NCBI GenBank assembly: GCA_965207535.1
Contig: CBDBMR010000005.1
Span: forward strand, 95,905 to 159,904
Direction of reading: 5' to 3'
DNA length: 64,000 nt
From: Rhodospirillales bacterium
GTDB lineage: Bacteria > Pseudomonadota > Alphaproteobacteria > Rhodospirillales > UBA2165
Shown: piece by piece, positions 786 to 51,346 of the stretch
Layout: each line of letters begins with the position of its first letter
Numbering within the stretch: position 1 is the stretch's first letter
Made by a program: the position numbers and the translations under genes
The notes under the pieces: model-generated
The model's input: only the letters and a program-made list of their open reading frames with translations
Database searches by the model: none
What the model was told of the DNA's origin: nothing

Positions 786-919
786 AATTTTCACGAATTG
801 AGCGCTGCCGGATTGGAGAGGTATGGCATTGGTTGTTGTGACGTCTCCAATGCCAACTAGTATTGGCCAACCAGTATCGCAATGAAATCACTTCGTTAAT
901 TGAGAATACGGGAAGACAG

Positions 920-1929
920 ATGGAATACCGTTACATCGGAAACAGCGGCCTGAGAGTTTCCACGATCAGCCTCGGCACCATGAATTTCGGCGCGACAACA
1001 AGCGAAGCCGCCGCCCGCAAAATCGTTGATGCCGCCCGGGGCCAAGGGATCAATTTCGTCGATACCGCCGACGCCTACGTCGGTGGAGCGTCGGAGACTA
1101 TTTTGGGAAAGCTGATCAAGAAGGATCGCGAGGACTGGGTGGTTGCAACCAAAGTCGGGCAACAGGATGGGCCGCCCGAGAGGAAACGCGGCCTGTCGAA
1201 AAAATGGATGATGGAGGCCATAGATGCTTCGTTGACCCGCCTTCGGATGGATTACGTCGAAATCTATTACATGCACCATGTGGATTGGGATACGCCGCTC
1301 GAGGAAAGCATCGAGGCGATGGGAGAAATCATTGCCGGCGGCAAGGCCCGGTATTGGGGTTTCTCCAATCATCGGGCCTGGCAGGTCGGCGAGCTTGTTC
1401 GTCTGTGTGACAATCTGGGCACCCCCCGGCCCATCATCGCGCAACCCATGTACAACATGGTCAACCGGACCCCGGAAACCGATCTGCTTCCCGCCTGCGA
1501 ATATTACGGCATCGGCGTCGTGCCCTATTCGCCCCTGGCCCGCGGGGTGCTTACGGGAAAATACGGGAACAGGAAGAAGATGCCCAAAAACAGCCGGGGC
1601 GGCCGCGGCGACGCGAGCGTTCTGAACCGCGACCTGAAAGAGGAATCCTTCAGGCCGTCGCCAAAATCGAGAAATATCTCGAGAACAGGAACATTCCCGT
1701 GTCCGACTTCGCCATCAGGTGGCTGCTCAACAACGGGATCGTCACGAGCGTCATCGGCGGGCCGAGGACACTTCAGCAGTGGAACGCCTATGTCCGGGCC
1801 GCCGGCAGGGAATTCACCGCCGAGGACGAAGCGTTCGTCGATACGCTCGTCGCCCCGGGTCACCAGGCCACGCACGGATATACCTGGCCACGCTATCCGG
1901 TGCGCGGCCGGCGCGCGATAGAAGGCTGA
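920..1929 (+). pseudogene. Aldo/keto reductase interrupted by a 1-nt frameshift near 1640-1650
   Basis: The N-terminal 240 aa (MEYRYIGNSGLRVSTISLGTMNFG...DTADAY...) are AKR-like in frame 2. After ...NRDLKEES the frame-2 translation degenerates into Ser/Pro/Arg-rich sequence. The AKR C-terminus (ILQAVAKIEKYLENRNIPVSDFAIRWLLNNGIVTSVIGGPRTLQQW...) continues in frame 1 (track ORF 1699..1929). Confidence 0.75.
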
Positions 1930-2114: not shown

Positions 2115-3336
2115 AAAGCATGACGCTGGGCGAGATTTCCTGACCCAACAGGACGCCGCCATAGATATCGCCGACATGGTCAACGTCAAAGATGGCGTGG
2201 GTGGCCAGCGCATTGGTATCGCGCTGGAACCGCTGGATCAGCGAGTCATTGTAGATCGCCCGGGAACCGGCCTCGCGCGCCATATCGTTGACTACCGCAT
2301 GGCACGTGCGCGCGACGTGACAGGCGACCATCCGCGCCTTGATGCGCTCCTCGCGGCTGAATTCGTGGCCCCGGGCGACCTTGTCCGAAACCTCCTGGAT
2401 GCCGGCGTCGAACAAACGGCGGGTTGCTTCCACGGTCATCTGGTTTTGGGCCATTCGCACCCGGGTGGACATCTGTTTGTCCATGGAGGCGTATGAGTAG
2501 GCGTTGGTCTTACCCTCGAGGACCCCGCAGACGAGTTCGCATACCGCCTCGGCGCCGCCCATCAACGGGCCGACCGCACCGTAGACCATGAAAGTCAGGA
2601 GCGGCACCCGCCACACAGGTTCGGTGTTGACCTCCAGCCCGGGCGCCCGGCCATTGCGCAGATCACTTACCGACACCGAATGGTGCTCCGGCACGAATGT
2701 GCCGTCCAATTCCACGTCGTGGCTGCCGGTTGCCGCCATCGCCGACACATCCCAGGTGTCGAGGATTTTGAACTCGCCTGCCGGTACAAAGAACCGCCGC
2801 ATTTCCGCCGGATCGCCGCTATCGGCGACCGGCGCCGCCAGGGCCATGTAGTCGCCGTGAAGAATTCCGGTCGCGTACCCCCACCGGCCGGTCAGCCGAA
2901 AACCGCCGTCGACGCGTTCGGCCGTCCCGCTCGGCATAACCTGCCCAGCCGCCATGGTGTAACCGGGCTCGCCGCCCCACACCTCGTCCTGGGCCTCCAC
3001 GGGGTAATGGCCGAACTGGAAATTGTGGTAGATGAGGAACCCCATGGTCCATCCGGTGGACATGCAGCCGCGTCCCAGCTCGCGGAATATTTGCGGAATG
3101 TATTTGAAATCGACCTCATGACCGCCATAGCGCTTTGGCACGATGGCCCGGAACAGGTCGGCCCGCTTGATGTCCCCGATGGTTTCTTCAGGGATTCGGC
3201 CCGCCTCCTCGGCCGCGCGTTGACGCTCCCGAAGCGCCGGGACCATGTCGGTGATCCGCCGGATAAGCTCGTCGCCCGTCACCTCGGATTTGGGATCGTT
3301 GAGGGTATCCACGTCTGTCTCTCCCCGGCCGGTCAC
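2113..3336 (-). CDS. Acyl-CoA dehydrogenase-fold flavin-dependent monooxygenase (group D oxygenase component-like)
   Basis: 407-aa ORF whose N-terminal and middle domains look like the ACAD-type oxygenase family (RIPEETIGDIKRADLFRAIVPKRYGG..., GGFRLTGRWGYATG). The GTG start overlaps the upstream stop (GTGA). Confidence 0.7.
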   Translation of the reverse strand: MTGRGETDVDTLNDPKSEVTGDELIRRITDMVPALRERQRAAEEAGRIPEETIGDIKRADLFRAIVPKRYGGHEVDFKYIPQIFRELGRGCMSTGWTMGFLIYHNFQFGHYPVEAQDEVWGGEPGYTMAAGQVMPSGTAERVDGGFRLTGRWGYATGILHGDYMALAAPVADSGDPAEMRRFFVPAGEFKILDTWDVSAMAATGSHDVELDGTFVPEHHSVSVSDLRNGRAPGLEVNTEPVWRVPLLTFMVYGAVGPLMGGAEAVCELVCGVLEGKTNAYSYASMDKQMSTRVRMAQNQMTVEATRRLFDAGIQEVSDKVARGHEFSREERIKARMVACHVARTCHAVVNDMAREAGSRAIYNDSLIQRFQRDTNALATHAIFDVDHVGDIYGGVLLGQEISPSVML

Positions 3337-3953
3337 TCTTTCCTTTGGGCGCCGACACCGTCCATGAACTGCTCCAGCGTTTCGTAGGGTTGGGCGCCGA
3401 CCACGCCTTGGCGCTCGGCGACGTAGGTTGGGACGCCGGTGACGCCGTACTGCCGCGATTTGGCCCAGTCCATGTCGATGGCGGCTTCGAAGGTCCGCTC
3501 CTCGATCACCTCGCGGGCGCCGTCTTCGCGAAGGCCCGCCTCCCGGGCGATCTCCATCAGCACCTGCGGATTGCCGATGTTCCGGTTATCGACGAAGTAG
3601 GCGCGGAACAGCGCCATGTGGATCGCTTCGCCGCCCGGCTGGGTGTCCGCCCATTTACCCAGCTCCTGCGCGAGCCGGCTATTGTAGGTATGGGTCCGCT
3701 TGCCGTAATCGAGGCCCTCGGCGTCCATCAACCCCTTCATCCGCTGGTAGGCCGCATCGATGTCGTAGTCGCGGCCCGCGAACAGTTCCTCAAGGGTCTG
3801 GCCCGCGTCTGGAGTTTCCGGGTGAAGCGGAAAATGCACGAACTCGAGGTTGACGTCGAAGGTGTCTCGTATTTTTTCAATACGCCCGGTACTGAGATAA
3901 CACCAAGGTCAGACGTAGTCGGTAAATACTTCGAGGGTGATGGGTTCGGACAT
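3333..3953 (-). CDS. DsbA/FrnE-like thiol oxidoreductase with an in-frame TGA (3909-3911) at the first Cys of the CxxC motif; candidate selenoprotein (UPWC)
   Basis: Track ORF 3333..3839 lacks the thioredoxin-fold N-terminus. The same frame continues upstream to an ATG at 3953 with AGGAG 10 nt upstream. It reads MSEPITLEVFTDYV-TGA-PWCYLSTGRIEKIRDTFDVNLEF-VHFPLH..., which matches the DsbA_FrnE pattern (i.vfsDvvCPWCyiG) except for TGA in place of Cys. Confidence 0.7.
3861..3904 (-). other. Candidate bacterial SECIS-like stem-loop immediately 3' of the in-frame UGA
   Basis: The mRNA reads UGACCUUGGUGUUAUCUCAGUACCGGGCGUAUUGAAAAAAUACGAGACACC. The outer stem is GGUGU/ACACC (+CU/AG), the inner stem is CGUAUU/AAUACG, and the apical loop is GAAAA about 31-35 nt after the UGA. 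Confidence 0.4.
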
Positions 3954-3966
3954 TGGCGGCGGGCTC

Positions 3967-4491
3967 CTAGCCTAGAGTGTAGTCAAATGCGTCGCACAAA
4001 TAGTGGCGTTTGCCGAGTTCGGCGCCGGCGTTGCGGACGATCGCGTAAGCGGTGGTGACATGGAAGGCGATCTGCGGGATAGCGAACCGGAGAAGATAGT
4101 CCTCACCCCTGAAGCGGTTTGGCTCGCCGCGGGCAATGATCTCGACGGTCCTGTCCTCGGCGCCCTCAAGCTCATCCTCGGTTACCGATTTCACGAGTGC
4201 CATCGTTTCTTCGACCCTTGCCCGCGCATCGGCGATGGCGAGTTCGCCCATATCGGTGAACGGCGGCGTTTCCCGTCCGGCCAGCCGCGCGGCCGCCCGG
4301 CCATGGTCCGCGGCGCGCCACACCTGCAAAGACAGCGAAAACATGTCCGGCGCCAGCTTGCTGGCCATCAAATCGGCTTCCTCGGCCTTGCCGTCCTTTA
4401 CCAGCCCTTCGGCATGGTCGAGAACGTTGAGCATTCCGGTGAGCAACTGCTCGGTTTCGGTCCGGACAAGATGATGCATTGAAATGGACAT
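3967..4491 (-). CDS. DUF1993 domain protein
   Basis: 174-aa ORF with a typical DUF1993 sequence (LAPDMFSL..QV..A...G..RL.G......D....), 13 nt upstream of the DsbA-like gene. Confidence 0.7.
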   Translation of the reverse strand: MSISMHHLVRTETEQLLTGMLNVLDHAEGLVKDGKAEEADLMASKLAPDMFSLSLQVWRAADHGRAAARLAGRETPPFTDMGELAIADARARVEETMALVKSVTEDELEGAEDRTVEIIARGEPNRFRGEDYLLRFAIPQIAFHVTTAYAIVRNAGAELGKRHYLCDAFDYTLG

Positions 4492-7833: not shown

Positions 7834-8777
7834 TGGCTGCCAAACGCAACCGGCGTTTGCCCGCCATCGGGATCGTCGGTCTCGGCAATATGGGCGGCGG
7901 CATCGCCCGCAACTTCGCCAAGGCGGGTTATCCCACCTGGGTTTGGGATTCCGCGCCATCGGCACAGGCAAAATTCTCCAAACTGAAGAATGCAGCCGTT
8001 GCCGAACCGAGGGAGATGGCGGCCCGGTGCCGGATCATTATCTTCGTCGTGCCGGCGACGCCCGAGATCGAAGAACACTGCCTCGGCCGCGACGGAATAT
8101 TCGCCACGGCAAGGAAGGGCCTGATCATTTATGATTTTACGACATCCGACCCGGTGGAAACCAAGAAGCTCGCGCGAAAGGCGGCGCGCAGGGAGATCGC
8201 CTATCTGGACGCAGGCATGAGCGGCGGCGGCGCCGGCGCCGACAAGGGAACCCTGACGTTGATGATCGGCGGCGACAAAAGGGCCTTCGGGCGGACCAGG
8301 CGTCATCTCAAGGTGATCGCCGACAAGCTGTTCCACCTCGGCCCGTCCGGCGCCGGACACACCACCAAGCTGATCCACAACATGGTCTGCCACGCCGTCT
8401 TCCTGGCCACCTGCGAGGGCGGACGAATGGCGGAAAAGGCAGGGATCGAACTCGCCGACCTGATCGACGTCTTCAACGTGTCGAACGCCCGTTCCAACGC
8501 CAGCCAGGCGCGGTTTCCCGACCACATCCTCAACAAGAAATGGGACGGCCGGTCGCGGGTCTACAATCTCTACAAGGATACGGGCATGGCCGTCGATCTC
8601 GCCAAGGCCCTGGGGGTCAATGCTAAACTGGGCGCCGATACCCACGCCTTTTTGGCGCAGGCCATGTCCCTCGGCATGTCCGAAGAGGATTTTACGCTGG
8701 TCTACCGGGACTTCGACAAAATCAAGAAGGCGAAGCCCCGGCGCCGAGCCCCCAAGAAGAGCAAGAAGGGAATGTGA
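7833..8777 (+). CDS. NAD(P)-dependent beta-hydroxyacid dehydrogenase paralogue with a Lys-rich C-terminal tail
   Basis: IGIVGLGNMGGGIARNF...GAGHTTKLIHN. The ATG overlaps the upstream TGA (ATGA at 7831-7835). The track's upstream extension lies inside the previous gene. Confidence 0.8.
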   Translation: MAAKRNRRLPAIGIVGLGNMGGGIARNFAKAGYPTWVWDSAPSAQAKFSKLKNAAVAEPREMAARCRIIIFVVPATPEIEEHCLGRDGIFATARKGLIIYDFTTSDPVETKKLARKAARREIAYLDAGMSGGGAGADKGTLTLMIGGDKRAFGRTRRHLKVIADKLFHLGPSGAGHTTKLIHNMVCHAVFLATCEGGRMAEKAGIELADLIDVFNVSNARSNASQARFPDHILNKKWDGRSRVYNLYKDTGMAVDLAKALGVNAKLGADTHAFLAQAMSLGMSEEDFTLVYRDFDKIKKAKPRRRAPKKSKKGM

Positions 8778-10010: not shown

Positions 10011-10976
10011 TTAGTTGGAGGCCAAGCCCTTGATCATGTTCTTGTAGGCCTTGCTCTGCATGGGACGGCGCTTCTCGTAATCTTCGCCGCTCTCAAAGTT
10101 CGCAACCTCGCCGATGGCCTTGATCAGACGCAGGTACGTCTTGTCTTTCTGGATCGCAACCATGGCATCGCGGAGTTTCTTCAGGCGGTCGGCGGGAATG
10201 CCGCGCGGCGCCATCAGGATGCGGTGCATCTGACCGATATCGGCGGTGTAGCCCAGATCCTTAAAGGTCGGCACCCCTTTGAAGTCGCTCTTCTGACCGG
10301 CGCTGATCAGGACACGTACCTTGTCGCCCTGGCCGAGAATGGTCGACTTGAACTGCATGGTGAAGTCGGCTTCGCCACGCAGGAAACCGGCCATGGAGGG
10401 TCCGCCGCCTTTGTACGGCACCATGACGATCTTGTCGGCGATGCCCGCTTCGGTGAACAGCTGCAGGGCCGGCGCGTGGGTGGCGCCCCAGTTGCCCGAA
10501 TGGGCGAACTTGACCGTACCCGGCTTCGCTTTGGCCGCCGCCACGAGATCCTGGAACGACTTGAACGGGCTGTCGGCGCGCACGATGATCGAGAAGAAAC
10601 CGGAGTTCAGCTTCGCGACGGTGACAAAATCCTTGTCGGTGTCATAGGGAAGCTTCTTCACATGCTTCTGCAGTTGATCGAAGTAGTTGTGCGAGAACAG
10701 CAGGGTGTACCCGTCCGGCTTTGCCTTGGCGGCGGCAGCCGTACCGGTCTGGCCCGACGCGCCCGGCATCAGCTTCACGATCATCGCATTGCCGAGATAC
10801 TGCGGAATGACGGAGGTGAACACCCGCGCGTTCCGGTCGTGAGATCCGCCCGCACCAAGGGGCATGATCATGGTAATGGGCTTCTCGGGAAATTCGGCCC
10901 GGACGTCATTGACGCCGAGCAGACCGAATACGAGAAGGGCTCCCAGAAGTAGTTTGGACAAATTTGCTATCCGCAT
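10011..10976 (-). CDS. tctC: Tripartite tricarboxylate transporter (TTT) substrate-binding protein (TctC/Bug family)
   Basis: Signal peptide MRIANLSKLLLGALLVFGLLGVNDVRA followed by EFPEKPITMIMPLGAGGSHD..VPYKGGGPS. GAGAGGAAAG precedes the ATG at 10976. Confidence 0.85.
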   Translation of the reverse strand: MRIANLSKLLLGALLVFGLLGVNDVRAEFPEKPITMIMPLGAGGSHDRNARVFTSVIPQYLGNAMIVKLMPGASGQTGTAAAAKAKPDGYTLLFSHNYFDQLQKHVKKLPYDTDKDFVTVAKLNSGFFSIIVRADSPFKSFQDLVAAAKAKPGTVKFAHSGNWGATHAPALQLFTEAGIADKIVMVPYKGGGPSMAGFLRGEADFTMQFKSTILGQGDKVRVLISAGQKSDFKGVPTFKDLGYTADIGQMHRILMAPRGIPADRLKKLRDAMVAIQKDKTYLRLIKAIGEVANFESGEDYEKRRPMQSKAYKNMIKGLASN

Positions 10977-16044: not shown

Positions 16045-16125
16045 CGCCGCGGCCAAGGGAGAGCCCGACATGAAAGGCATGGTGGCTGACGATCATCATA
16101 GATACCCCAGCCAAGGAGACTTTCG

Positions 16126-16962
16126 ATGACTTCTCCCATGGTGGATTCCGCTTGGCTTGCCGAGCATCTGGACGATCCGGGGGTTCGCATTATCGAGGTT
16201 GAATCGGACCCCGAGGGAAAGGCCTACGACGAGGGACACGTTCCGGGCGCTATCCGCTGGTTTTGGAAGGACCTTTGCTGGCACGAGACCGACCGCCAGT
16301 TCGTGACGCCGGATGAGTTGGCCAAACGGCTCGGCGCCGCCGGGATCGGCGACAAGACCACGCTGGTTCTTTATGGCGATCCGGTTCAGTACGGAAACTA
16401 CGCCTTCTGGGCATTGAAGATGGCCGGCCATCCCGACCTGCGGTTGCTCGACGGCGCCCGCAGGAAGTGGCTTGCGGACGGTCACGAATTCACCACCGAC
16501 GTTCCCGCGTATGAGCCGGTCGGGTATACGCCCGGAACGCCCGACCAAACCATGCGTCTCGGGCGCGAGGCCGTGCGCGAGCGCCTGGGCGACCCCGGGC
16601 GCTTCCTGTTGGACGTGCGGACGCCCGAGGAATATTCGGGCGAACGGGTGATGGAGTACGGCCAATTCGACCACGGCGCCGAGCGTGGCGGCCGCATCCC
16701 CGGCGCCAGGCACTTGTTCTTCAAGGAACTGCTCAATGGCGACGATACCTACAAGAGCCCCGAGGAACTGAGCGCCAAATTCAAGGAAGCGGGCGCCGAC
16801 CCCGGCGACGCCGACGAGATCGTCGTCTATTGCCGCCTCTCCCACCGGGCCACCCTCGCCTGGACCGCCATGGCGCTGATCCTGGGCTGGGAGAACATCA
16901 AAATCTACGACGGTTCGTGGACCGAATGGGGCTCGATCGTCGGGTTTCCTGTCGAAAGGTAG
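16126..16962 (+). CDS. Rhodanese-domain sulfurtransferase (thiosulfate/3-mercaptopyruvate sulfurtransferase-like)
   Basis: Tandem rhodanese domains with the active-site loop VVYCRLSHRAT and GHVPGA / GRIPGA motifs. Confidence 0.85.
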   Translation: MTSPMVDSAWLAEHLDDPGVRIIEVESDPEGKAYDEGHVPGAIRWFWKDLCWHETDRQFVTPDELAKRLGAAGIGDKTTLVLYGDPVQYGNYAFWALKMAGHPDLRLLDGARRKWLADGHEFTTDVPAYEPVGYTPGTPDQTMRLGREAVRERLGDPGRFLLDVRTPEEYSGERVMEYGQFDHGAERGGRIPGARHLFFKELLNGDDTYKSPEELSAKFKEAGADPGDADEIVVYCRLSHRATLAWTAMALILGWENIKIYDGSWTEWGSIVGFPVER

Positions 16963-19767: not shown

Positions 19768-20790
19768 CTATTCGGCCGGCAGATATTTCTGCCGGTCGCT
19801 GCGGTCCTTCGACTTGATCGCCGCCAGGACCTTCTCCGCCGTCGCCGGCAAATTGTAGATCCGCGCGCCCACGGCGTCGTAGATGGCGTTGCAGATCGCC
19901 GCCGAGGTGGCGACCGCCGTCGGCTCGCCCACACCCTTGGCGCCGAACGGTCCCGTCGGGTCGAAGTTCTCGACGATGTCGACCTCCAGGTCGGGCATGT
20001 CGAGGCTGGTCGGCATGATGTAGTTGGTGAGATTCGGATTGATCTGTTTGCCCTCGTCGTCGAACAGCATCTCTTCCTGGATCGCCATGCCGACTCCCAT
20101 GGAGATACCGCCCTGAATCTGACCTTCGACCAACATCGGGTTGATCGCGGTACCGCAATCGTGGGCCGCCGCGATTCGCAGAACCTCGACCTCTCCGGTC
20201 TCTTCGTCCACCTCGACCTCCGCGATCTGGGTCGCGTAGACATAGGTGGAGAACGGCTTGCCCTGGCCGGTTTCCGGATCCATCGCGACGGTCGGCGGAT
20301 TGTAGGATGCGGACCCCAGCGCCGGCGTGCCGGCGCCGTTCTGCGCGTGCGCAGCAACCTCGCCGATGGGCAGGCAGGATTGCGGGAAGCCCTTCACCTG
20401 GATCTGCCGGTCCTTGGCCTCGAGCTGGTTGGGACGGACGCCCAGCATCGGCGCCGCGACCTCGAACAGGATGTTCTTGGCCTTTTCGGCCGCGAGCTGG
20501 ATCGCGTTGCCGGTGACATAGGTCGTGCGGCTGGCGATGGCGCCCGTATCCATGGGCGTCGCGTCGGTATCCGCCGAAACCACATGCACGTCATCGGTGG
20601 AGATGCCGAGTTCCTCCGCGGCGATCTGGCCGAGGACAGTGAGCGAGCCCTGGCCCGTTTCCACGGTGCCGGTGATCAGGGTCGCGGTGCCGTCCTCATT
20701 GACCTTCACCGTCGCCGCCGACGGGTTGGCCATCACGGTAAACCCGATCGGATACCACATGCAGCCCATGCCTTTTCCGCGCTTTTTCAT
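19768..20790 (-). CDS. Molybdenum hydroxylase (xanthine dehydrogenase/aldehyde oxidase family) Mo-binding subunit, C-terminal half (M-like subunit)
   Basis: 340 aa: GMGCMWYPIGF...TGTVETGQGSLTVLGQIAAEELG...DTDATPMDTGAIASRTTYVTG...NPMLVEGQIQGG...GAKGVGEP. This corresponds to the second half of a CoxL/XdhB-type subunit. Confidence 0.85.
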   Translation of the reverse strand: MKKRGKGMGCMWYPIGFTVMANPSAATVKVNEDGTATLITGTVETGQGSLTVLGQIAAEELGISTDDVHVVSADTDATPMDTGAIASRTTYVTGNAIQLAAEKAKNILFEVAAPMLGVRPNQLEAKDRQIQVKGFPQSCLPIGEVAAHAQNGAGTPALGSASYNPPTVAMDPETGQGKPFSTYVYATQIAEVEVDEETGEVEVLRIAAAHDCGTAINPMLVEGQIQGGISMGVGMAIQEEMLFDDEGKQINPNLTNYIMPTSLDMPDLEVDIVENFDPTGPFGAKGVGEPTAVATSAAICNAIYDAVGARIYNLPATAEKVLAAIKSKDRSDRQKYLPAE

Positions 20791-22178
20791 TGGCCGTCCT
20801 CCTTCCAGCCGAACCGCTCGGCGGCCTTTTCGAGGGAGTCCTTGACAACCACGCTTTGCAGCACTTGGCCGGTCGGGCTGGCGGAACCTTCATGGAAGGC
20901 GTTCTTCATCCGCAGCTCCAGCGGGTCGATGCCCAGCTTGTGGGCGATCTCGTCCATCTGGGATTCATAGGCGAAGCACACCTGCGGCGCCCCGAACCCG
21001 CGCATGGCGCCGGTCATGGTCTTGTTGGTGTACATGCAGTAGGCCTCGGCGAGCAGGTTCTCGATATTGTACGGCCCCGCCGACAGAATGCAGGCCTTGC
21101 CCAGGGTGGTTTCGCTCCACGAACAGTAGGCGCCGCCGTCCAGGACGAGGCGAACCTTGCGGGCGGTGATCATGCCGTCGTTGGTAACGCCGGTCTTGTA
21201 CTCCATGATGAACGGGTGCCTGGTCGTCGAGGCGATGAATTCCTCTTCGCGGGTATAGACCATTTTCACCGGCCGTCCCGTCTTCCGCGACAGCAGGGCC
21301 AGGGCCGGCTCGGTGGTGATCTCGTTCTTGCCGCCGAAGTTGCCGCCGACGATGGTGCCGACAATGCGGATCTTGTTGATCGGCATATCGAGCGTGCGGG
21401 CAATGTCGGCCCGGCCCAGGGTTATCCGCCCCAGGCTCGACCACAAGGTCACCCGGCCATTGGGGTCCCACTGCGCGATGGACGCATGAGGCTCCAGCGG
21501 CACGTGCTCGATCATCTGGGTCGAGTAGACGCCCTCGAAAATGTGGTCGGCCTCAGCGAAGCCCTTCTCGAGATCGCCTTTCTTGATCCGCTTGGTCGCG
21601 TAGATGTTGCTGTGCGGCGGATGGACCTTGATCTCGTCTTTCATCGCCTCCACCGGATCGTAGACCGGCTCCAGCGGCTTGTACTCGACCTTGATCCTCT
21701 CGCACGCCTCCTCGGCGATCTGTTCGGTCACCGCAGCCACTGCGGCGACCGGGTCACCAGCGTGGAACACGCGTTCGTCGGCCAGGACCGGCTGATCCTG
21801 ATAGGACGGACCATAGGAATTGACCGGAATTTCCTTGCCGACCAGCACCGCCGCTACGCCGGGCATGGCCTCGGCTTCGGAGGTATCGACGGACTTGATC
21901 AACGCCGAGGAAATGCCGGCCCGCTTCATCTTGGCGAACAGCATGTTCGGAAACGTTATGTCGTCGATGTATTTGGTCTGACCCAGGCCGTGCAGGCGGC
22001 CGTCCGGACGGGTCGCCCGCTGGCCCACCGCCGGCGTCTGGTGCCGCGCCTCGGTATCGATGGTCTCGACCGGAAAATGAGCCGGCTCGACGACCGACGG
22101 GAGACGAAGGTCCTCGTCGGTCTCCTTGAGGTCGGTCAGCGAATCCGTCTTATCGGCGACTTTGACATCATCAGTCAT
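20787..22178 (-). CDS. Molybdenum hydroxylase Mo-binding subunit, N-terminal half (a/b-hammerhead plus first MoCo domain; L-like subunit)
   Basis: 463 aa: GLGQTKYIDDITFPNMLFAKMKRA...GGNFGGK...GAMRGFGAPQVCFAYESQMD. It ends 4 nt into the next gene (ATGA overlap at 20787-20790). Confidence 0.85.
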   Translation of the reverse strand: MTDDVKVADKTDSLTDLKETDEDLRLPSVVEPAHFPVETIDTEARHQTPAVGQRATRPDGRLHGLGQTKYIDDITFPNMLFAKMKRAGISSALIKSVDTSEAEAMPGVAAVLVGKEIPVNSYGPSYQDQPVLADERVFHAGDPVAAVAAVTEQIAEEACERIKVEYKPLEPVYDPVEAMKDEIKVHPPHSNIYATKRIKKGDLEKGFAEADHIFEGVYSTQMIEHVPLEPHASIAQWDPNGRVTLWSSLGRITLGRADIARTLDMPINKIRIVGTIVGGNFGGKNEITTEPALALLSRKTGRPVKMVYTREEEFIASTTRHPFIMEYKTGVTNDGMITARKVRLVLDGGAYCSWSETTLGKACILSAGPYNIENLLAEAYCMYTNKTMTGAMRGFGAPQVCFAYESQMDEIAHKLGIDPLELRMKNAFHEGSASPTGQVLQSVVVKDSLEKAAERFGWKEDGQ

Positions 22179-22201
22179 GGTTCAAGCTCCTCTCTGCGCC
22201 C

Positions 22202-22684
22202 TCAGGCGGCTTCCTTCTCGCCGCGGAGAATGCGCGCCGCATCCTGAACAGCTTCGATCATTTTAGTGTAGCCCGTGCACCGGCAAAGATTGCCGGAGAG
22301 CGCGTCCTTGATCTCTTCCTTGGTCGGATCGGGGTTCCTGTCCAACAGCCCCTTGGCGGAGATGATCACGCCGGGGCCGCAGAAACCGCACTGCAGAGAC
22401 GCGAACTCCTCGAACGCCTTCTGGATCGGATGGAGATCCTCCAAGGTCGCCAGGCCTTCGATGGTGACCACATCCCTGCCGTCCACCTGGCCGGCCAGCA
22501 TCAGGCAGGCATTCACCGGGATACCGTCGACGATGACCGTGCAGGCGCCGCAGTCGCCGACATCGCAGCCGAGCTTGGATCCGGTGAGATAAAATTCGTC
22601 CCGGAGCAACCGAAGCAGGCTGGTCTCCGGCGGCACCGATGCCAAGCGTTCTTCGCCGTTGATGGTGAGCGTAACGTCCGTCAT
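22202..22684 (-). CDS. (2Fe-2S)-binding small subunit of the molybdenum hydroxylase
   Basis: GCDVGDCGACTV...QCGFCGPG...NLCRCTGY, the canonical two-cluster CoxS/XdhC-type small subunit. Confidence 0.9.
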   Translation of the reverse strand: MTDVTLTINGEERLASVPPETSLLRLLRDEFYLTGSKLGCDVGDCGACTVIVDGIPVNACLMLAGQVDGRDVVTIEGLATLEDLHPIQKAFEEFASLQCGFCGPGVIISAKGLLDRNPDPTKEEIKDALSGNLCRCTGYTKMIEAVQDAARILRGEKEAA

Positions 22685-22709
22685 GTCCGTTCTCCTTTTC
22701 TCCGCCCGC

Positions 22710-23579
22710 CTAGTCGTTTTGGGCGAGCCGATAGGCGTTGTCGAGCGTGCGCTTGGTCAGCACGGCAATCAGATCCCGGCGGTAGGATGCCGAGGCGCGG
22801 AAGTCGTCGATGGGCTTGGCGTCCTCGACCGCCAGCCGGCCGGCTTCGGCCATGTTCTCAGGGGTGATTTCCCTGCCCTCGAGGAAATCCTCCGCGGCGG
22901 CCGCGCGGATCACCGTCGGCGCCACGGCGCCCAGGCTTATCTTCACGTCCTTGAAGGTGTTTCCCTCGCCGACCCAGAGGGCGGAGGCGGCATTGACGAG
23001 TGCCAGCGCCTGGCCCTTGCGAAGCCCGAATTTCAGGAAGTCGGTGGGCTTGCCCAGGTTCCTCTTCGGAATGATCACGTCGAGCAACACTTCGTTATGC
23101 TCGAGGATGGTCTTGCGGGGGCCGACGAAGAACTCTTCCAGGCCCATGCGGCGGGTACCGTCCGGACCGGCCACCGTCACCTCGGCTTCGAGCGCCATCA
23201 GGGCGGGACCAGAATCCATCGACGGCACGCACGTGACCAGATTGCCCCCGAGGGTTCCAAGGTTCCGGGTCTGCACCGCGCCGATGGTGTGGGCGGCGTG
23301 AACCAAGGCCGGGAAGTTTTCTTGAATGTAGGGGTTATCCATGATCTCGGTGTGGGTGACCAAGGCGCCGATGCGCAGCCCCTCGTCATTCACCTCGATG
23401 CCCTTCAGGTCTTCGGCCCTCGTAATGTCGACGACCACATCCGGGTCGTGCTTGGCGTGTTTGAGATCGACGAGAATGTCCGTCCCGCCGGCGAGCACGA
23501 TGACGTTGGGACCATGTTCGCTCAAAAGGGAAACCGCCTGACCGGCGGACTCCGCAGATACAAAATCAAAGGCCCTCAT
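22710..23579 (-). CDS. FAD-binding medium subunit of the molybdenum hydroxylase (CoxM-like)
   Basis: MRAFDFVSAESAGQAVSLL...VLAGGTDILVDLK...TLGGNL...SASYRRDL. The start at 23579 was chosen at the first Met of the homologous region. Confidence 0.85.
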   Translation of the reverse strand: MRAFDFVSAESAGQAVSLLSEHGPNVIVLAGGTDILVDLKHAKHDPDVVVDITRAEDLKGIEVNDEGLRIGALVTHTEIMDNPYIQENFPALVHAAHTIGAVQTRNLGTLGGNLVTCVPSMDSGPALMALEAEVTVAGPDGTRRMGLEEFFVGPRKTILEHNEVLLDVIIPKRNLGKPTDFLKFGLRKGQALALVNAASALWVGEGNTFKDVKISLGAVAPTVIRAAAAEDFLEGREITPENMAEAGRLAVEDAKPIDDFRASASYRRDLIAVLTKRTLDNAYRLAQND

Positions 23580-47290: not shown

Positions 47291-48292
47291 TCAGGCGGCC
47301 TTCAGGAAGTGGATGCTGAACAGGTCGTTCGCGTCGGTCCAGGTTGCGCCGACGGCAAAACCGGCCCCAGCCGCCAAACCGCCGAATTCCCGGACGGTGT
47401 ATTTGTAGGAATTTTCCGTATGGATGGTTTCACCCTCCGAGAAACGGAATGTCTCCCCGCCGATACGAATGCGCTGCTCCGATTTGGCGCGCAGGTGCAT
47501 TTCTATCCGCCCCTCGCCCTCATTGTAGAATGCGTGATGCTCGAACCCGTCGACGTTCACCTCGGAATCGAGTTCACGCTCGATGCGGCGCAACAGGTTG
47601 AGATTGAAGTCGGCCGTGTGGCCGGCTTCGTCGTTGTAGGCGCGGTTCAGACGGCCGGTGTCTTTCTTCAGATCGACGCCGATGAGCAGGGCGCCGTCGT
47701 CACCCACGTTCTCCCGCACCCGTCCCAGGAAGGCCCCGGCCTCCTCGGGCGTCTGGTTGCCGATGGTCGAGCCCGGGAAGAAACCCAGTTTCGTGCCGCC
47801 GCCGCCCCTGGCGACGTCGGCGGGAAGTTCGAAGCCGCCGGTGAAGTCGGCGCAGATGCCGCCTACCCTGAGACCGGGGTGGCGGGCGGAGATATCCTCG
47901 ACCACGAAGCGCAGGTGCTCCGGCGATATATCGATGGCCGCATACTCGGCCGGGTCTTCCAGCGCATCGAGCAGCAGGTTGATCTTGGCCGCCGAGCCGC
48001 AGCCGTATTCGATGACCACCGCGCCGGGCCCCGCGAGGCGCCGGATATCGTCGCTTCGATCGGACAGCAGGCCGGTCTCCGTCCGGGTGACGTAATACTC
48101 CTCGGTCTCGCAAATGCGGTTGAAAATGTGCGAGCCCTCCTCATCGTAGAAGAACTTCGCCGGAATTTCCTTCTGTGCGGCCCGCAGGCCGGCAATTACC
48201 GCGTGCTCGAAATCGGCCGCCCGGGGCTGCCGGTCGACGAAATAGGCCACGCCTCCGGACGCGCCGTCGCCGGGTGGTGTCAATTCATCCAT
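47291..48292 (-). CDS. egtD: EgtD-type L-histidine N-alpha-methyltransferase family protein (Methyltransf_33)
   Basis: KFFYDEEGSHIFNRICETEEYYVTRTE...VIEYGCGSAAK...GFFPGSTIGN...ENSYKYT are hallmark EgtD-family motifs. The start at 48292 is the first Met of the homologous region. Confidence 0.75.
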   Translation of the reverse strand: MDELTPPGDGASGGVAYFVDRQPRAADFEHAVIAGLRAAQKEIPAKFFYDEEGSHIFNRICETEEYYVTRTETGLLSDRSDDIRRLAGPGAVVIEYGCGSAAKINLLLDALEDPAEYAAIDISPEHLRFVVEDISARHPGLRVGGICADFTGGFELPADVARGGGGTKLGFFPGSTIGNQTPEEAGAFLGRVRENVGDDGALLIGVDLKKDTGRLNRAYNDEAGHTADFNLNLLRRIERELDSEVNVDGFEHHAFYNEGEGRIEMHLRAKSEQRIRIGGETFRFSEGETIHTENSYKYTVREFGGLAAGAGFAVGATWTDANDLFSIHFLKAA

Positions 48293-48406
48293 GATGCGAT
48301 TGCCGCCTTTCGGTGCCTTGGGCGCGGGTGAAAGTGGCCGGATTGTTGGCGGCGGGGCATCGGGTGTCAACCCGCCGCCGGGAAAAAGCACCCGTCTTTG
48401 AATAAG

Positions 48407-49391: not shown

Positions 49392-50210
49392 ATGGATTCT
49401 GAAACCCCTGGCGCCGCCGATCTGGCGGCCGCCTTGATTTCTTCGGACGACCCGCCGCCCTTCGAGCTTCTCAACCCCGAGGGTAGCGCACCGGTGCTGC
49501 TGATCTGCGATCATGCGAGCCGCGAGGTTCCAGGGAGTTTGGACGGGCTCGGCCTCACGCCGGAGACGCTTGACCTGCACGTCGCCTGGGATATCGGCGC
49601 CGCCAACGTCACTCGGCGGCTCGCGGCAAAACTGGACGCCAGGGCCGTGCTCGCCGGCTATTCGCGGCTGGTCATCGACAACAACCGCCAACCCGGTGAT
49701 CCGACGGCGATCCCCGACGTCAGCGACAATATCGTCATTCCCGGCAACCAGGACCTGTCGGAGGCCGACGAGGTGGCGCGGCGGGACGCTCTCTACTGGC
49801 CCTATCACCGCGCCGTTTCGGAAGGTCTGGCCCACCTGTGGCGCCGCGGCACGCCGCCGGCCCTGTTCTCGGTCCACAGCTTCACGCCGTCCATGGGCGG
49901 CGAGGATCGCGAGTGGCACGTGGGCGTGCTGTGGAACCGGGACCCCCGGATCGCCGAGCCGCTCATATATGAACTCCGCCGGCGGCCGGAAGGCTTCAAG
50001 GTCGGCGACAACCTGCCCTACTCCGGTGCGGACCTGGCTCATTCCCTTGATTTTCACGGCGGCGCGGCGGGCCTGCCCAATTGCGCGGTCGAAATCCGGC
50101 AGGATTTGGTGGAAGACGACGAAGGCGCCGAGGAGTGGGCCGGTATCGTTGCGGACTGCCTGAACCGAATTCTGCGGATCGACGACATTCACGAGGTCAA
50201 ACACTACTGA
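49392..50210 (+). CDS. N-formylglutamate amidohydrolase family protein
   Basis: PVLLICDHASREVP...WDIGA...SRLVIDNNR...SVHSFTP motifs. The ATG at 49392 is preferred because the track start (49311) would overlap the divergent gene's start codon. Confidence 0.8.
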   Translation: MDSETPGAADLAAALISSDDPPPFELLNPEGSAPVLLICDHASREVPGSLDGLGLTPETLDLHVAWDIGAANVTRRLAAKLDARAVLAGYSRLVIDNNRQPGDPTAIPDVSDNIVIPGNQDLSEADEVARRDALYWPYHRAVSEGLAHLWRRGTPPALFSVHSFTPSMGGEDREWHVGVLWNRDPRIAEPLIYELRRRPEGFKVGDNLPYSGADLAHSLDFHGGAAGLPNCAVEIRQDLVEDDEGAEEWAGIVADCLNRILRIDDIHEVKHY

Positions 50211-51346
50211 TGCCCATCTCGGAACCCGCCCTGACGATCGGTATCGAGGAGGAGTATCTTCTCGTCGAGCGCGACAGCCGCGACCTTGCCAAAAATCCGC
50301 CGGGAGAAATGTTCGAGGAATGCGAGGCGCGGCTCCAGAACCTAGTCAAGCCGGAGTTCCTGAAGTCCCAGATCGAGGTGGCGACCGATGTCTGTGCCTC
50401 CATTGCCGAGGCGCGCCGGGAACTGGGCGAACTGCGCTCCACCATCGCCGAGGTCGCCGACAAGTTTGACCTCGCCCCCATCGCCGCCTCCACCCATCCC
50501 TTTGCCCGTTGGGAACACCAGGTCCACACCGACAAGGACCGCTACAATTCGCTCGCCCGGGACCTTCAAGCGGTCGCCCGGCGGCTAGTGATCTGCGGCA
50601 TGCACGTCCACGTCTGCGTCGAAGACGACGATCTTCGGATCGATTTGATGAGCCAGGCCGCCTATTTCCTGCCCCATTTGATGGCTCTCTCCACCTCGTC
50701 GCCGTTCTGGGGAGGCGAGAAGACCGGCCTGATGTCGTACCGGCTGTGCGTCTGGGACGAATTGCCGCGGACCGGCTTGCCGGAGCGTTTCGACTCCTAC
50801 GGCGAGTATCTCCGGCATGTGAATGTCATGATAGACGCCGGACTCATCGAGGACGCGACGATGATCTGGTGGGATATCCGGCCGAGCGCCCGGTTCCCGA
50901 CCCTCGAGATGCGAATCAGCGACATCTGCACCCGAATCGAGGACACGATCACCATCGCGGCCTTCTATGTCTGCATCATCCGCATGCTCTATCGCCTTCG
51001 CAGCTCCAATCAGCGCTGGCGCAGCTATTCCAATATGCTGGTCGCGGAGAATCGCTGGCGCGCCCATCGGTTCGGTCTGGATGAAGGCCTAGTGGATTTC
51101 GGAAAGGGCTCGCTTGTTCCTTTTGCCGATCTCATCGAGGAATTGCTGGAACTGATCCGCGAGGATGCCGAGGCTCTCGGCTGCGTCGCCGAGGTGGAAC
51201 ATGCCCGGACGATCATCGCGCGCGGCACCAGCGCCCACCGGCAGATCGCCACGTTCGACGATGCCGTCGGCGCGGGCGCGTCCCCGGAAGAGGCCCTCCG
51301 CGCCGTCGTCGACGACCTGATCGAGCAGACCGCCGCAGGACTTTAG
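50210..51346 (+). CDS. Carboxylate-amine ligase, YbdK type (glutamate-cysteine ligase family 2)
   Basis: LTIGIEEEYLLV...CGMHVHV...STSSPFWGG..TG..SYR...WWDIRPS..FPTLE.R..D. The ATG shares one base with the upstream TGA (TGATG). Confidence 0.85.
   Translation: MPISEPALTIGIEEEYLLVERDSRDLAKNPPGEMFEECEARLQNLVKPEFLKSQIEVATDVCASIAEARRELGELRSTIAEVADKFDLAPIAASTHPFARWEHQVHTDKDRYNSLARDLQAVARRLVICGMHVHVCVEDDDLRIDLMSQAAYFLPHLMALSTSSPFWGGEKTGLMSYRLCVWDELPRTGLPERFDSYGEYLRHVNVMIDAGLIEDATMIWWDIRPSARFPTLEMRISDICTRIEDTITIAAFYVCIIRMLYRLRSSNQRWRSYSNMLVAENRWRAHRFGLDEGLVDFGKGSLVPFADLIEELLELIREDAEALGCVAEVEHARTIIARGTSAHRQIATFDDAVGAGASPEEALRAVVDDLIEQTAAGL

Follow-up and report, generated by a model that had tools for sequence, protein, structure and literature searches.

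The DsbA family of thiol-disulfide oxidoreductases includes predicted selenoproteins in which selenocysteine (Sec, U) takes the first position of the CxxC redox motif (UxxC). A DsbA-like protein of this kind (COG2761, UxxC) was predicted in 2005 from nine Sargasso Sea sequences, and a selenocysteine insertion sequence (SECIS) was drawn for AACY01178397 (PMC1088965). In 2006, a DsbA-like selenoprotein was found in four sequenced genomes, including those of Anaeromyxobacter dehalogenans, Desulfovibrio desulfuricans, and Desulfotomaculum reducens (PMC1794560); 41 organisms were reported in 2016 (PMC5029168), and a 2026 review carries the entry "DsbA-like protein form 1, PF01323, UxxC" (PMC13188914). 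Members of the FrnE group carry a CP(W/F)C motif and are predicted to act as thiol-disulfide oxidoreductases in the cytoplasm; the Deinococcus enzyme shows disulfide isomerase and reductase activity, with a C-terminal CxxxxC tail that helps regenerate the active site (PMC8945050). Here, we analyzed a stretch of 64,000 nucleotides (nt), hereafter the window, from a Rhodospirillales bacterium (assembly GCA_965207535.1, contig CBDBMR010000005.1, positions 95,905 to 159,904 of the forward strand). To judge from its sequence and those of its relatives, the gene at 3333..3953 on the minus strand almost certainly encodes a FrnE-subfamily selenoprotein, with the catalytic cysteine (Cys) replaced by Sec, which belongs to this known, computationally predicted family. 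A preliminary description of the window had presented DsbA-like Sec proteins as computational predictions made only from marine metagenomes; they are indeed computational predictions, but the four genomes of 2006 and the 41 organisms of 2016 show that they are not confined to marine metagenomes.

The mechanical list of open reading frames (ORFs) begins this gene at GTG 3839 and gives it 168 amino acids. Direct translation of the minus-strand frame from ATG 3953..3951 to position 3333 reads MSEPITLEVFTDYV*PWCYLSTGR...AQRKE*; the ATG is followed by MSEPITLEVFTDYV-TGA-PWCYLSTGRIEK..., and the TGA at 3911..3909 is the sole internal stop. The full coding sequence (3333..3953, minus strand) would hold 206 codons, including Sec15, and ends at a TGA stop (3335..3333). 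A Shine-Dalgarno sequence, AGGAG (3964..3968, minus strand), lies 10 nt before the ATG and overlaps the TAG that ends the DUF1993 gene upstream (3969..3967), so that the two genes are 13 nt apart; the position of the start ATG is kept in 74 of 80 Sec-form relatives. Gene callers leave out the 14 codons before the UGA (3912..3953, minus strand), which correspond to strand beta1 of the thioredoxin fold, and wrongly take the GTG at 3837..3839 (minus strand) as the start. The in-frame UGA (3909..3911, minus strand), predicted to specify Sec15, stands at the first, nucleophilic position of a U-P-W-C redox motif whose resolving residue, Cys18 (TGT, 3900..3902, minus strand), is the only Cys of the protein. 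Further along, the codon of Pro175 (3429..3431, minus strand) lies in a G-V-P-T loop (G173, V174, P175, and T176) that is invariant in the alignment with Cys homologues and that we take to be the cis-Pro loop of the thioredoxin fold.

The same truncation was found in public databases. In a protein search, the 27 nearest clusters (92-98% identity) had each been called with a length of exactly 168 amino acids, and full-length Cys homologues turned up only at 69% identity or less. The public gene calls examined for the orthologue group were either 168 or 184 amino acids long, all without the active site. NCBIfam holds no dedicated model, its sole match being to the Rcas_1661 family at a weak, sub-threshold score (28.7 bits versus 190), so that truncated gene calls are not rescued.

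When U was read as C, the full-length product matched the Pfam domain DSBA (PF01323) over profile positions 1-190 of 191 (E 9e-32; 110.9 bits for a cut-off of 25.6), which means that the domain is complete only with the 38 codons upstream of GTG 3839. The best match among solved structures was FrnE of Deinococcus radiodurans (5CNW/5CP1; E 7e-22, residues 2-202), and SCO1869 (3GL5) was also matched. In 5CNW, the residue opposite U15 is the first Cys of CPWC (DIACPWCYIG versus DYV-U-PWCYLS), and the U column holds Cys in 11 of 11 full-length homologues. The preliminary description had already proposed the start of the ORF track at 3839, the ATG at 3953 with AGGAG 10 nt upstream, the single in-frame TGA at the first Cys of CPWC, and the membership of the 38 upstream codons in the DsbA domain, and had expected the U to fall on Cys in alignments with FrnE/DsbA homologues; all of this agrees with the translation, the profile match, and the alignments. 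Exactly one Cys follows the U in 77 of 81 sequences (the window and the 80 loci introduced below). The N-terminus opens at beta1 with no hydrophobic leader, as read from the sequence rather than with a signal-peptide predictor, and a C-terminal CxxxxC tail is absent, the protein having no Cys besides Cys18 and ending at residue 206.

These features place the protein among its described relatives. A CP(W/F)C-type site near the N-terminus of a DsbA-like domain characterizes the FrnE subfamily (cd03024/COG2761), and the window protein has such a site at the corresponding place. It likewise combines the PF01323 domain with Sec at the first position of CxxC, and with DsbA-like form 1 it shares widespread Cys homologues and a SECIS-type hairpin that closely follows the UGA and has a G in its small apical loop; this placement is made by domain and motif rather than by alignment to the published AACY01178397 and NIP15863.1. 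The xPWC active-site context and the lack of a signal peptide are common to the window protein and D. radiodurans FrnE (DR_0659). In contrast, the latter has Cys rather than Sec, and the window protein ends about 50 residues earlier, without the tail, resembling in this the tail-less FrnE proteins of S. roseofulvus and D. maricopensis (PMC8945050). Periplasmic DsbA of E. coli belongs to the same Pfam family and has the same thioredoxin-fold CxxC chemistry, but the window protein differs from it in having no signal peptide, an xPWC rather than a CPHC motif, and no DsbB partner noticed among its annotated neighbours. A periplasmic DsbA oxidase was ruled against by the lack of a leader, the UPWC motif, and the surrounding genes, which encode cytoplasmic catabolic enzymes.

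Conservation was assessed in the 80 best related loci, drawn from species-representative genomes at 66-94% protein identity. Most came from Rhodospirillales, Rhodospirillaceae, Stellaceae, and other alphaproteobacterial metagenome-assembled genomes (MAGs), and single MAGs labelled Myxococcota, Gammaproteobacteria, and Ca. Cybelea were also included. Orthologues are carried by the complete chromosomes OZ243926.1 (92% identical), OZ244931.1, and CP170489.1 and by contig CBDBHH010000005.1. The codon at the position of Sec15 was TGA in 79 of these 80 loci and TGC in one (L075). Of the amino acids encoded by the 14 codons that precede it, E, F, D, and Y were conserved at 100%, V at 97%, and L at 94%, while codon entropy amounted to 0.3-1.8 bits; Val-1, for instance, was written as GTC, GTT, GTG, or GTA, and Leu-8 with five codons. 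Since the residues are kept while synonymous sites vary freely, these 14 upstream codons must be translated and under purifying selection. Past the TGA, 78 of the 80 relatives had an uninterrupted frame of 188-196 codons, and the remaining two (L024 and L030) were changed only by the loss of the terminal stop. In each of these two loci the loss takes effect from about position 10,570; the L024 frame extends into the next gene downstream, whose counterpart in L013 forms an ORF of its own, and the L030 frame goes on as an Arg-rich extension of about 70 codons.

Ordinary stops were also counted in the window. TGA ended 21, TAG 18, and TAA 7 of 46 confident ORFs, the selenoprotein gene being one of those closed by TGA. 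A reassignment of UGA in the genetic code was rejected on this basis, as a genome in which TGA is the commonest stop and terminates the gene itself does not read UGA generally as sense. The share of TAG (18 of 46) seems high for a genome of 64% guanine-cytosine content.

A SECIS-type hairpin lies at 3877..3895 (minus strand), where UCAGUAC (3895..3889) faces GUAUUGA (3883..3877) across the loop CGGGC (3888..3884). The stem has 7 base pairs (bp), the loop follows the form C-G-[G/U]-G-C, and the spacing from UGA to loop is 20 nt. Codons +5 to +11 (CTC AGY ACC GKG CGT RTT GAA) showed near-zero synonymous variation, compared with entropies of 0.8-1.8 bits in the flanking codons. Across 54 distinct sequences, the bases paired in 99.7% of cells, versus 25-43% when the 3' partners were slid by 1-3 columns. 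Furthermore, pair 21:31 was U:A in 61 sequences and C:G in 19, and none was in a mixed state. This switch couples a synonymous change, AGT to AGC, with a non-synonymous one, ATT (Ile) to GTT (Val), and at least four independent events are needed to explain it on a neighbour-joining tree of the remaining protein sequence. The third loop base was always G or U through at least five changes, which toggle the encoded residue between Gly and Val.

The published model of the bacterial SECIS (bSECIS) describes a loop of 3-9 nt, a stem of 4-16 bp, 16-37 nt from UGA to loop, a minimum free energy (MFE) of -7.5 kcal/mol or lower, and a G at loop position 1 or 2, with G or U as the usual next base (PMC13188914). 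The hairpin lies within this description in loop, stem, G[G/U] motif, spacing, and MFE, the 60-nt MFE being at or below -7.5 kcal/mol in 80 of 80 sequences and nt 4-50 reaching the threshold in 77 of 80. The fdhF and fdnG elements of E. coli are the experimental archetypes of the bacterial SECIS. As in the bacterial consensus (the bSECISearch model), the present hairpin sits within the coding region just after the UGA, with a 5-nt apical loop and a 7-bp upper stem; unlike the E. coli elements, to which it has no sequence similarity, it has no evident bulged U, and SelB binding here is putative. Searches with a covariance model returned no further copies of the hairpin except in a truncated duplicate in L062 (28 bits). 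There, at about 8004-8088 and 2 kb upstream of the intact gene, a second copy of the N-terminus, the TGA, and the 5' half of the hairpin departs from the family sequence after ...YLSTVR.

Cys-containing homologues offered a control for this RNA constraint. Of the 7 hairpin pairs, the five homologues that we examined (L075 and L086-L089) keep only 3-5, owing to a different choice of synonymous codons (CGC ATC, for example). In some of them the encoded residues are almost unchanged here (YLSTARIEK, YLSTGRV). Covariance-model scores were correspondingly separated, at 60-76 bits for Sec forms versus 17-38 bits for Cys forms. One of the five is L075, the only Cys form among the best 80 loci, which is nested among Sec forms and so suggests, on sequence grounds, a recent Sec-to-Cys replacement. 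Over 600 nt, its DNA shares 86% identity with that of L030, the closest Sec form, but this drops to 63% in the 19-nt hairpin, where 7 of 19 bases are altered (L075 9998-10045). In comparison, 666 Sec-Sec pairs of comparable divergence had a mean hairpin identity of 98%, with a minimum of 84%. The divergence in L075 indicates that the RNA constraint is tied to the TGA and is released once Cys replaces Sec.

Direct and strong support thus exists for the TGA, for its match to the catalytic Cys in alignments, for selection of the translational type on either side of it, and for a conserved, co-varying, TGA-linked hairpin that fits the bSECIS consensus. The UGA at 3911..3909 is very probably decoded as Sec, rather than read as a stop, when the gene is translated. 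The hairpin at 3895..3877 would act as a bacterial SECIS, recruiting SelB-GTP-Sec-tRNA(Sec) to the approaching ribosome so that Sec is inserted. The product is predicted to be a thiol-disulfide oxidoreductase of the cytoplasm, 206 residues long and of roughly 23 kDa, that belongs to the FrnE subfamily within the DsbA family and has the active site U15-P-W-C18. This selenoprotein would cycle between a selenol/thiol and a selenenylsulfide, with Sec as the attacking nucleophile, and so reduce or isomerise disulfides in substrate proteins. It has no C-terminal CxxxxC tail, and an external reductant would therefore have to regenerate it. From these features we infer that SelB and Sec are used, that the protein is cytoplasmic, and that its redox chemistry and external reductant are as described; a reducing or isomerising role in the cytoplasm appears more likely than one in oxidative folding.

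Several observations weigh against Sec decoding. The core hairpin alone is of modest stability (-4.9 kcal/mol, and -4.9 to -6.8 across sequences), and the window sequence by itself folds no better than its shuffles (z = -0.96), so that the case for the hairpin is comparative rather than thermodynamic. Rfam has no relevant family for it, even at a permissive threshold. No tRNA-Sec was detected in the 64-kb window (ARAGORN, Rfam) or in the 80 related loci (ARAGORN), and tblastn with E. coli and Roseomonas SelA, SelB, SelD, and FdnG as queries found none of these proteins in the window or in 1.33 Mb of flanks of the related loci, where the sole match was EF-Tu in L066. Moreover, a search of the window for coding-like extensions across TGA, and with Pfam on about 46 ORFs, gave no second selenoprotein candidate. 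Nearly all such families are bioinformatic predictions that are functionally uncharacterised (PMC13188914), and selenium in the members of this one is likewise a prediction.

The missing machinery can be put into context. Sec machinery is normally unlinked to its client genes, and its absence from the window and the flanks is uninformative rather than negative. Alphaproteobacteria, Rhodospirillales among them, are reported to have such machinery, and in some cases tRNA-Sec lies inside selB (PMC9312934); Sec use is accordingly plausible in this group, and a simple tRNA scan could miss selC where it is nested in this way. The same Pfam search found no selenium-related gene in the window, and a Sec/Cys homology scan of all read-through ORFs of the window and the flanks yielded only off-frame noise rich in Arg, Ser, and Cys. 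The window does encode a two-domain rhodanese sulfurtransferase (16102-16962, plus strand), which has no in-frame TGA. Some members of the rhodanese sulfurtransferase family are selenoproteins.

The alternative that best withstands the evidence, although it is improbable, is a Sec-independent recoding in which the hairpin helps a near-cognate Trp or Cys tRNA, or another mechanism not involving SelB, to read through the UGA, with Cys or Trp placed at position 15. No Sec machinery was found in the window or in the flanks of the related loci, and a C comes directly after the UGA in every one of the 80 Sec-form sequences, which is a leaky termination context. However, in the size of its loop, its G[G/U] motif, and its spacing, the hairpin conforms to the bSECIS consensus of the SelB type, and the restriction of loop position 3 to G or U has survived at least five changes. 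The history of L075 also indicates that a lineage in need of Cys simply takes TGC and then loses the hairpin, and the family is recognised as one of Sec/Cys pairs. Slightly less probable again is that at least some of these alphaproteobacterial lineages decode the UGA and hairpin without canonical SelA, SelB, and tRNA-Sec, by a recoding that depends on the hairpin but not on Sec, or that the SECIS is kept for a second, regulatory role. If the second role were true, selenium-dependent expression of a cytoplasmic disulfide reductase, for example, could explain a near-invariant SECIS across at least 79 species.

Sec insertion at the UGA also has to be weighed against the very unlikely case that the functional product is the 168-amino-acid protein from GTG 3839, preceded by a separate 14-codon leader peptide, with the hairpin in a regulatory role. 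All public gene calls examined that start at this GTG do give 168 amino acids, but the Pfam domain lacks its beginning in such a product. Furthermore, protein-level conservation covers the interval from the TGA to GTG 3839 (PWCYLST...EFVH), in which the resolving Cys and helix alpha1 lie, and the supposed leader is homologous to beta1 of FrnE. GTG 3839 itself is a conserved internal Val (V39), for which 3 of 80 Sec-form sequences have GTA, so that it is not conserved as a start codon.

Less credible still is a pseudogene, that is, a decaying DsbA/FrnE locus with a Cys-to-stop nonsense mutation. A single sequence with an in-frame stop one TGY-to-TGA step away would look alike, and frameshifting does occur in the window, at least in the aldo-keto reductase gene (863-1921). 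In the relatives, however, the same TGA persists down to 66% identity, protein-level selection acts on both sides of it, and the intact frames, the two exceptions having lost only the final stop, exclude a pseudogene. The preliminary description had named further disruption of the gene in close relatives as a finding that would tell against its reading, and none was seen beyond those two lost stops; its view that the gene is not decaying, and its larger proposal of a DsbA/FrnE-family UxxC selenoprotein cut short by ORF calling, are accordingly upheld by the conserved TGA, the selection upstream of it, the TGA-specific hairpin, and the intact relatives. A sequencing or assembly error for a true TGC or TGT, the least credible alternative, for which the apparent origin of the window in a metagenome assembly and the occurrence of the exact 168-amino-acid product on ENA metagenome contigs could be cited, is excluded by the presence of the TGA in independent assemblies from many projects and technologies and by a downstream RNA constraint that is missing in TGC/TGT forms.

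With its UGA read as Sec, the locus adds an unannotated member to an established family, and current understanding is unchanged in that DsbA-like UxxC selenoproteins have been catalogued since 2005. What goes beyond the catalogue is a broad clade with a near-invariant SECIS and systematic truncation in gene calls. The clade consists mainly of alphaproteobacterial MAGs from soil, freshwater, seawater, and sponges and is represented by at least 79 species-level genomes within the 80 best matches, in contrast to the nine Sargasso Sea sequences of 2005 and the 41 organisms of 2016. A redox enzyme that is widespread in Alphaproteobacteria of soil and sea would thus be systematically mis-annotated, because the public gene calls examined are truncated and lack the active site. 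The family also offers a clean natural case of an RNA element constraining a protein, in which Ile/Val and Gly/Val choices are set by SECIS pairing and loop identity, a constraint that is gone in L075, where Sec would have reverted to Cys.

The selenoprotein gene is preceded by genes for a cupin, an Ldh_2 dehydrogenase, and a DUF1993 protein and followed by one for an HsaA-like flavin monooxygenase, with a divergent GntR regulator. The order cupin / Ldh_2 / DUF1993 / DsbA(U) / HsaA-like is common only to the four closest relatives, and comparison of the related loci revealed no neighbour conserved family-wide. The arrangement provides no functional lead, and the operon was rejected as functional evidence; for the same reason, the intact operon that the preliminary description had held against a pseudogene carries little weight as an argument. 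The 13-nt gap upstream is as it had described, and the GTGA is present at 3336..3333, but the overlap with the downstream gene that it had read there is uncertain. Within the downstream HsaA-like monooxygenase ORF, GTG 3312 lies in frame, with GGGGAGAG placed 6 nt before it, and NCBIfam alignments of this protein begin at about residue 24-26 of the longer ORF. Judging from these features, GTG 3312 is probably a more plausible start than GTG 3336, which overlaps the TGA stop, and a spacer of about 20 nt would then separate the two genes.

Elsewhere in the window, the aldo/keto reductase ORF (863-1921, plus strand) matches its Pfam profile only at 2-212 of 291, and its C-terminal part (..AIRWLLNNGIVTSVIGGPRTLQQWNAYV..) continues in another plus-strand frame after about 1600-1640, which shows the gene to be frameshifted, either as a pseudogene or by an assembly indel. 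The molybdopterin-binding large subunit of a xanthine-dehydrogenase-family enzyme (19768-22181, minus strand) is split into Ald_Xan_dh_C+MoCoBD_1 and MoCoBD_2 parts, whose ORFs are joined by an ATGA stop/start overlap beside a run of five A near 20783. The split may be natural, giving two genes, or may stem from a 1-nt indel; the [2Fe-2S] subunit lies nearby at 22202-22756. Finally, a histidine-specific S-adenosylmethionine methyltransferase gene (Methyltransf_33, EgtD-like; 47291-48406, minus strand) stands close to a GCS2 glutamate-cysteine ligase gene (EgtA-like; 50051-51346, plus strand), a proximity that hints at a partial ergothioneine-type thiol pathway.

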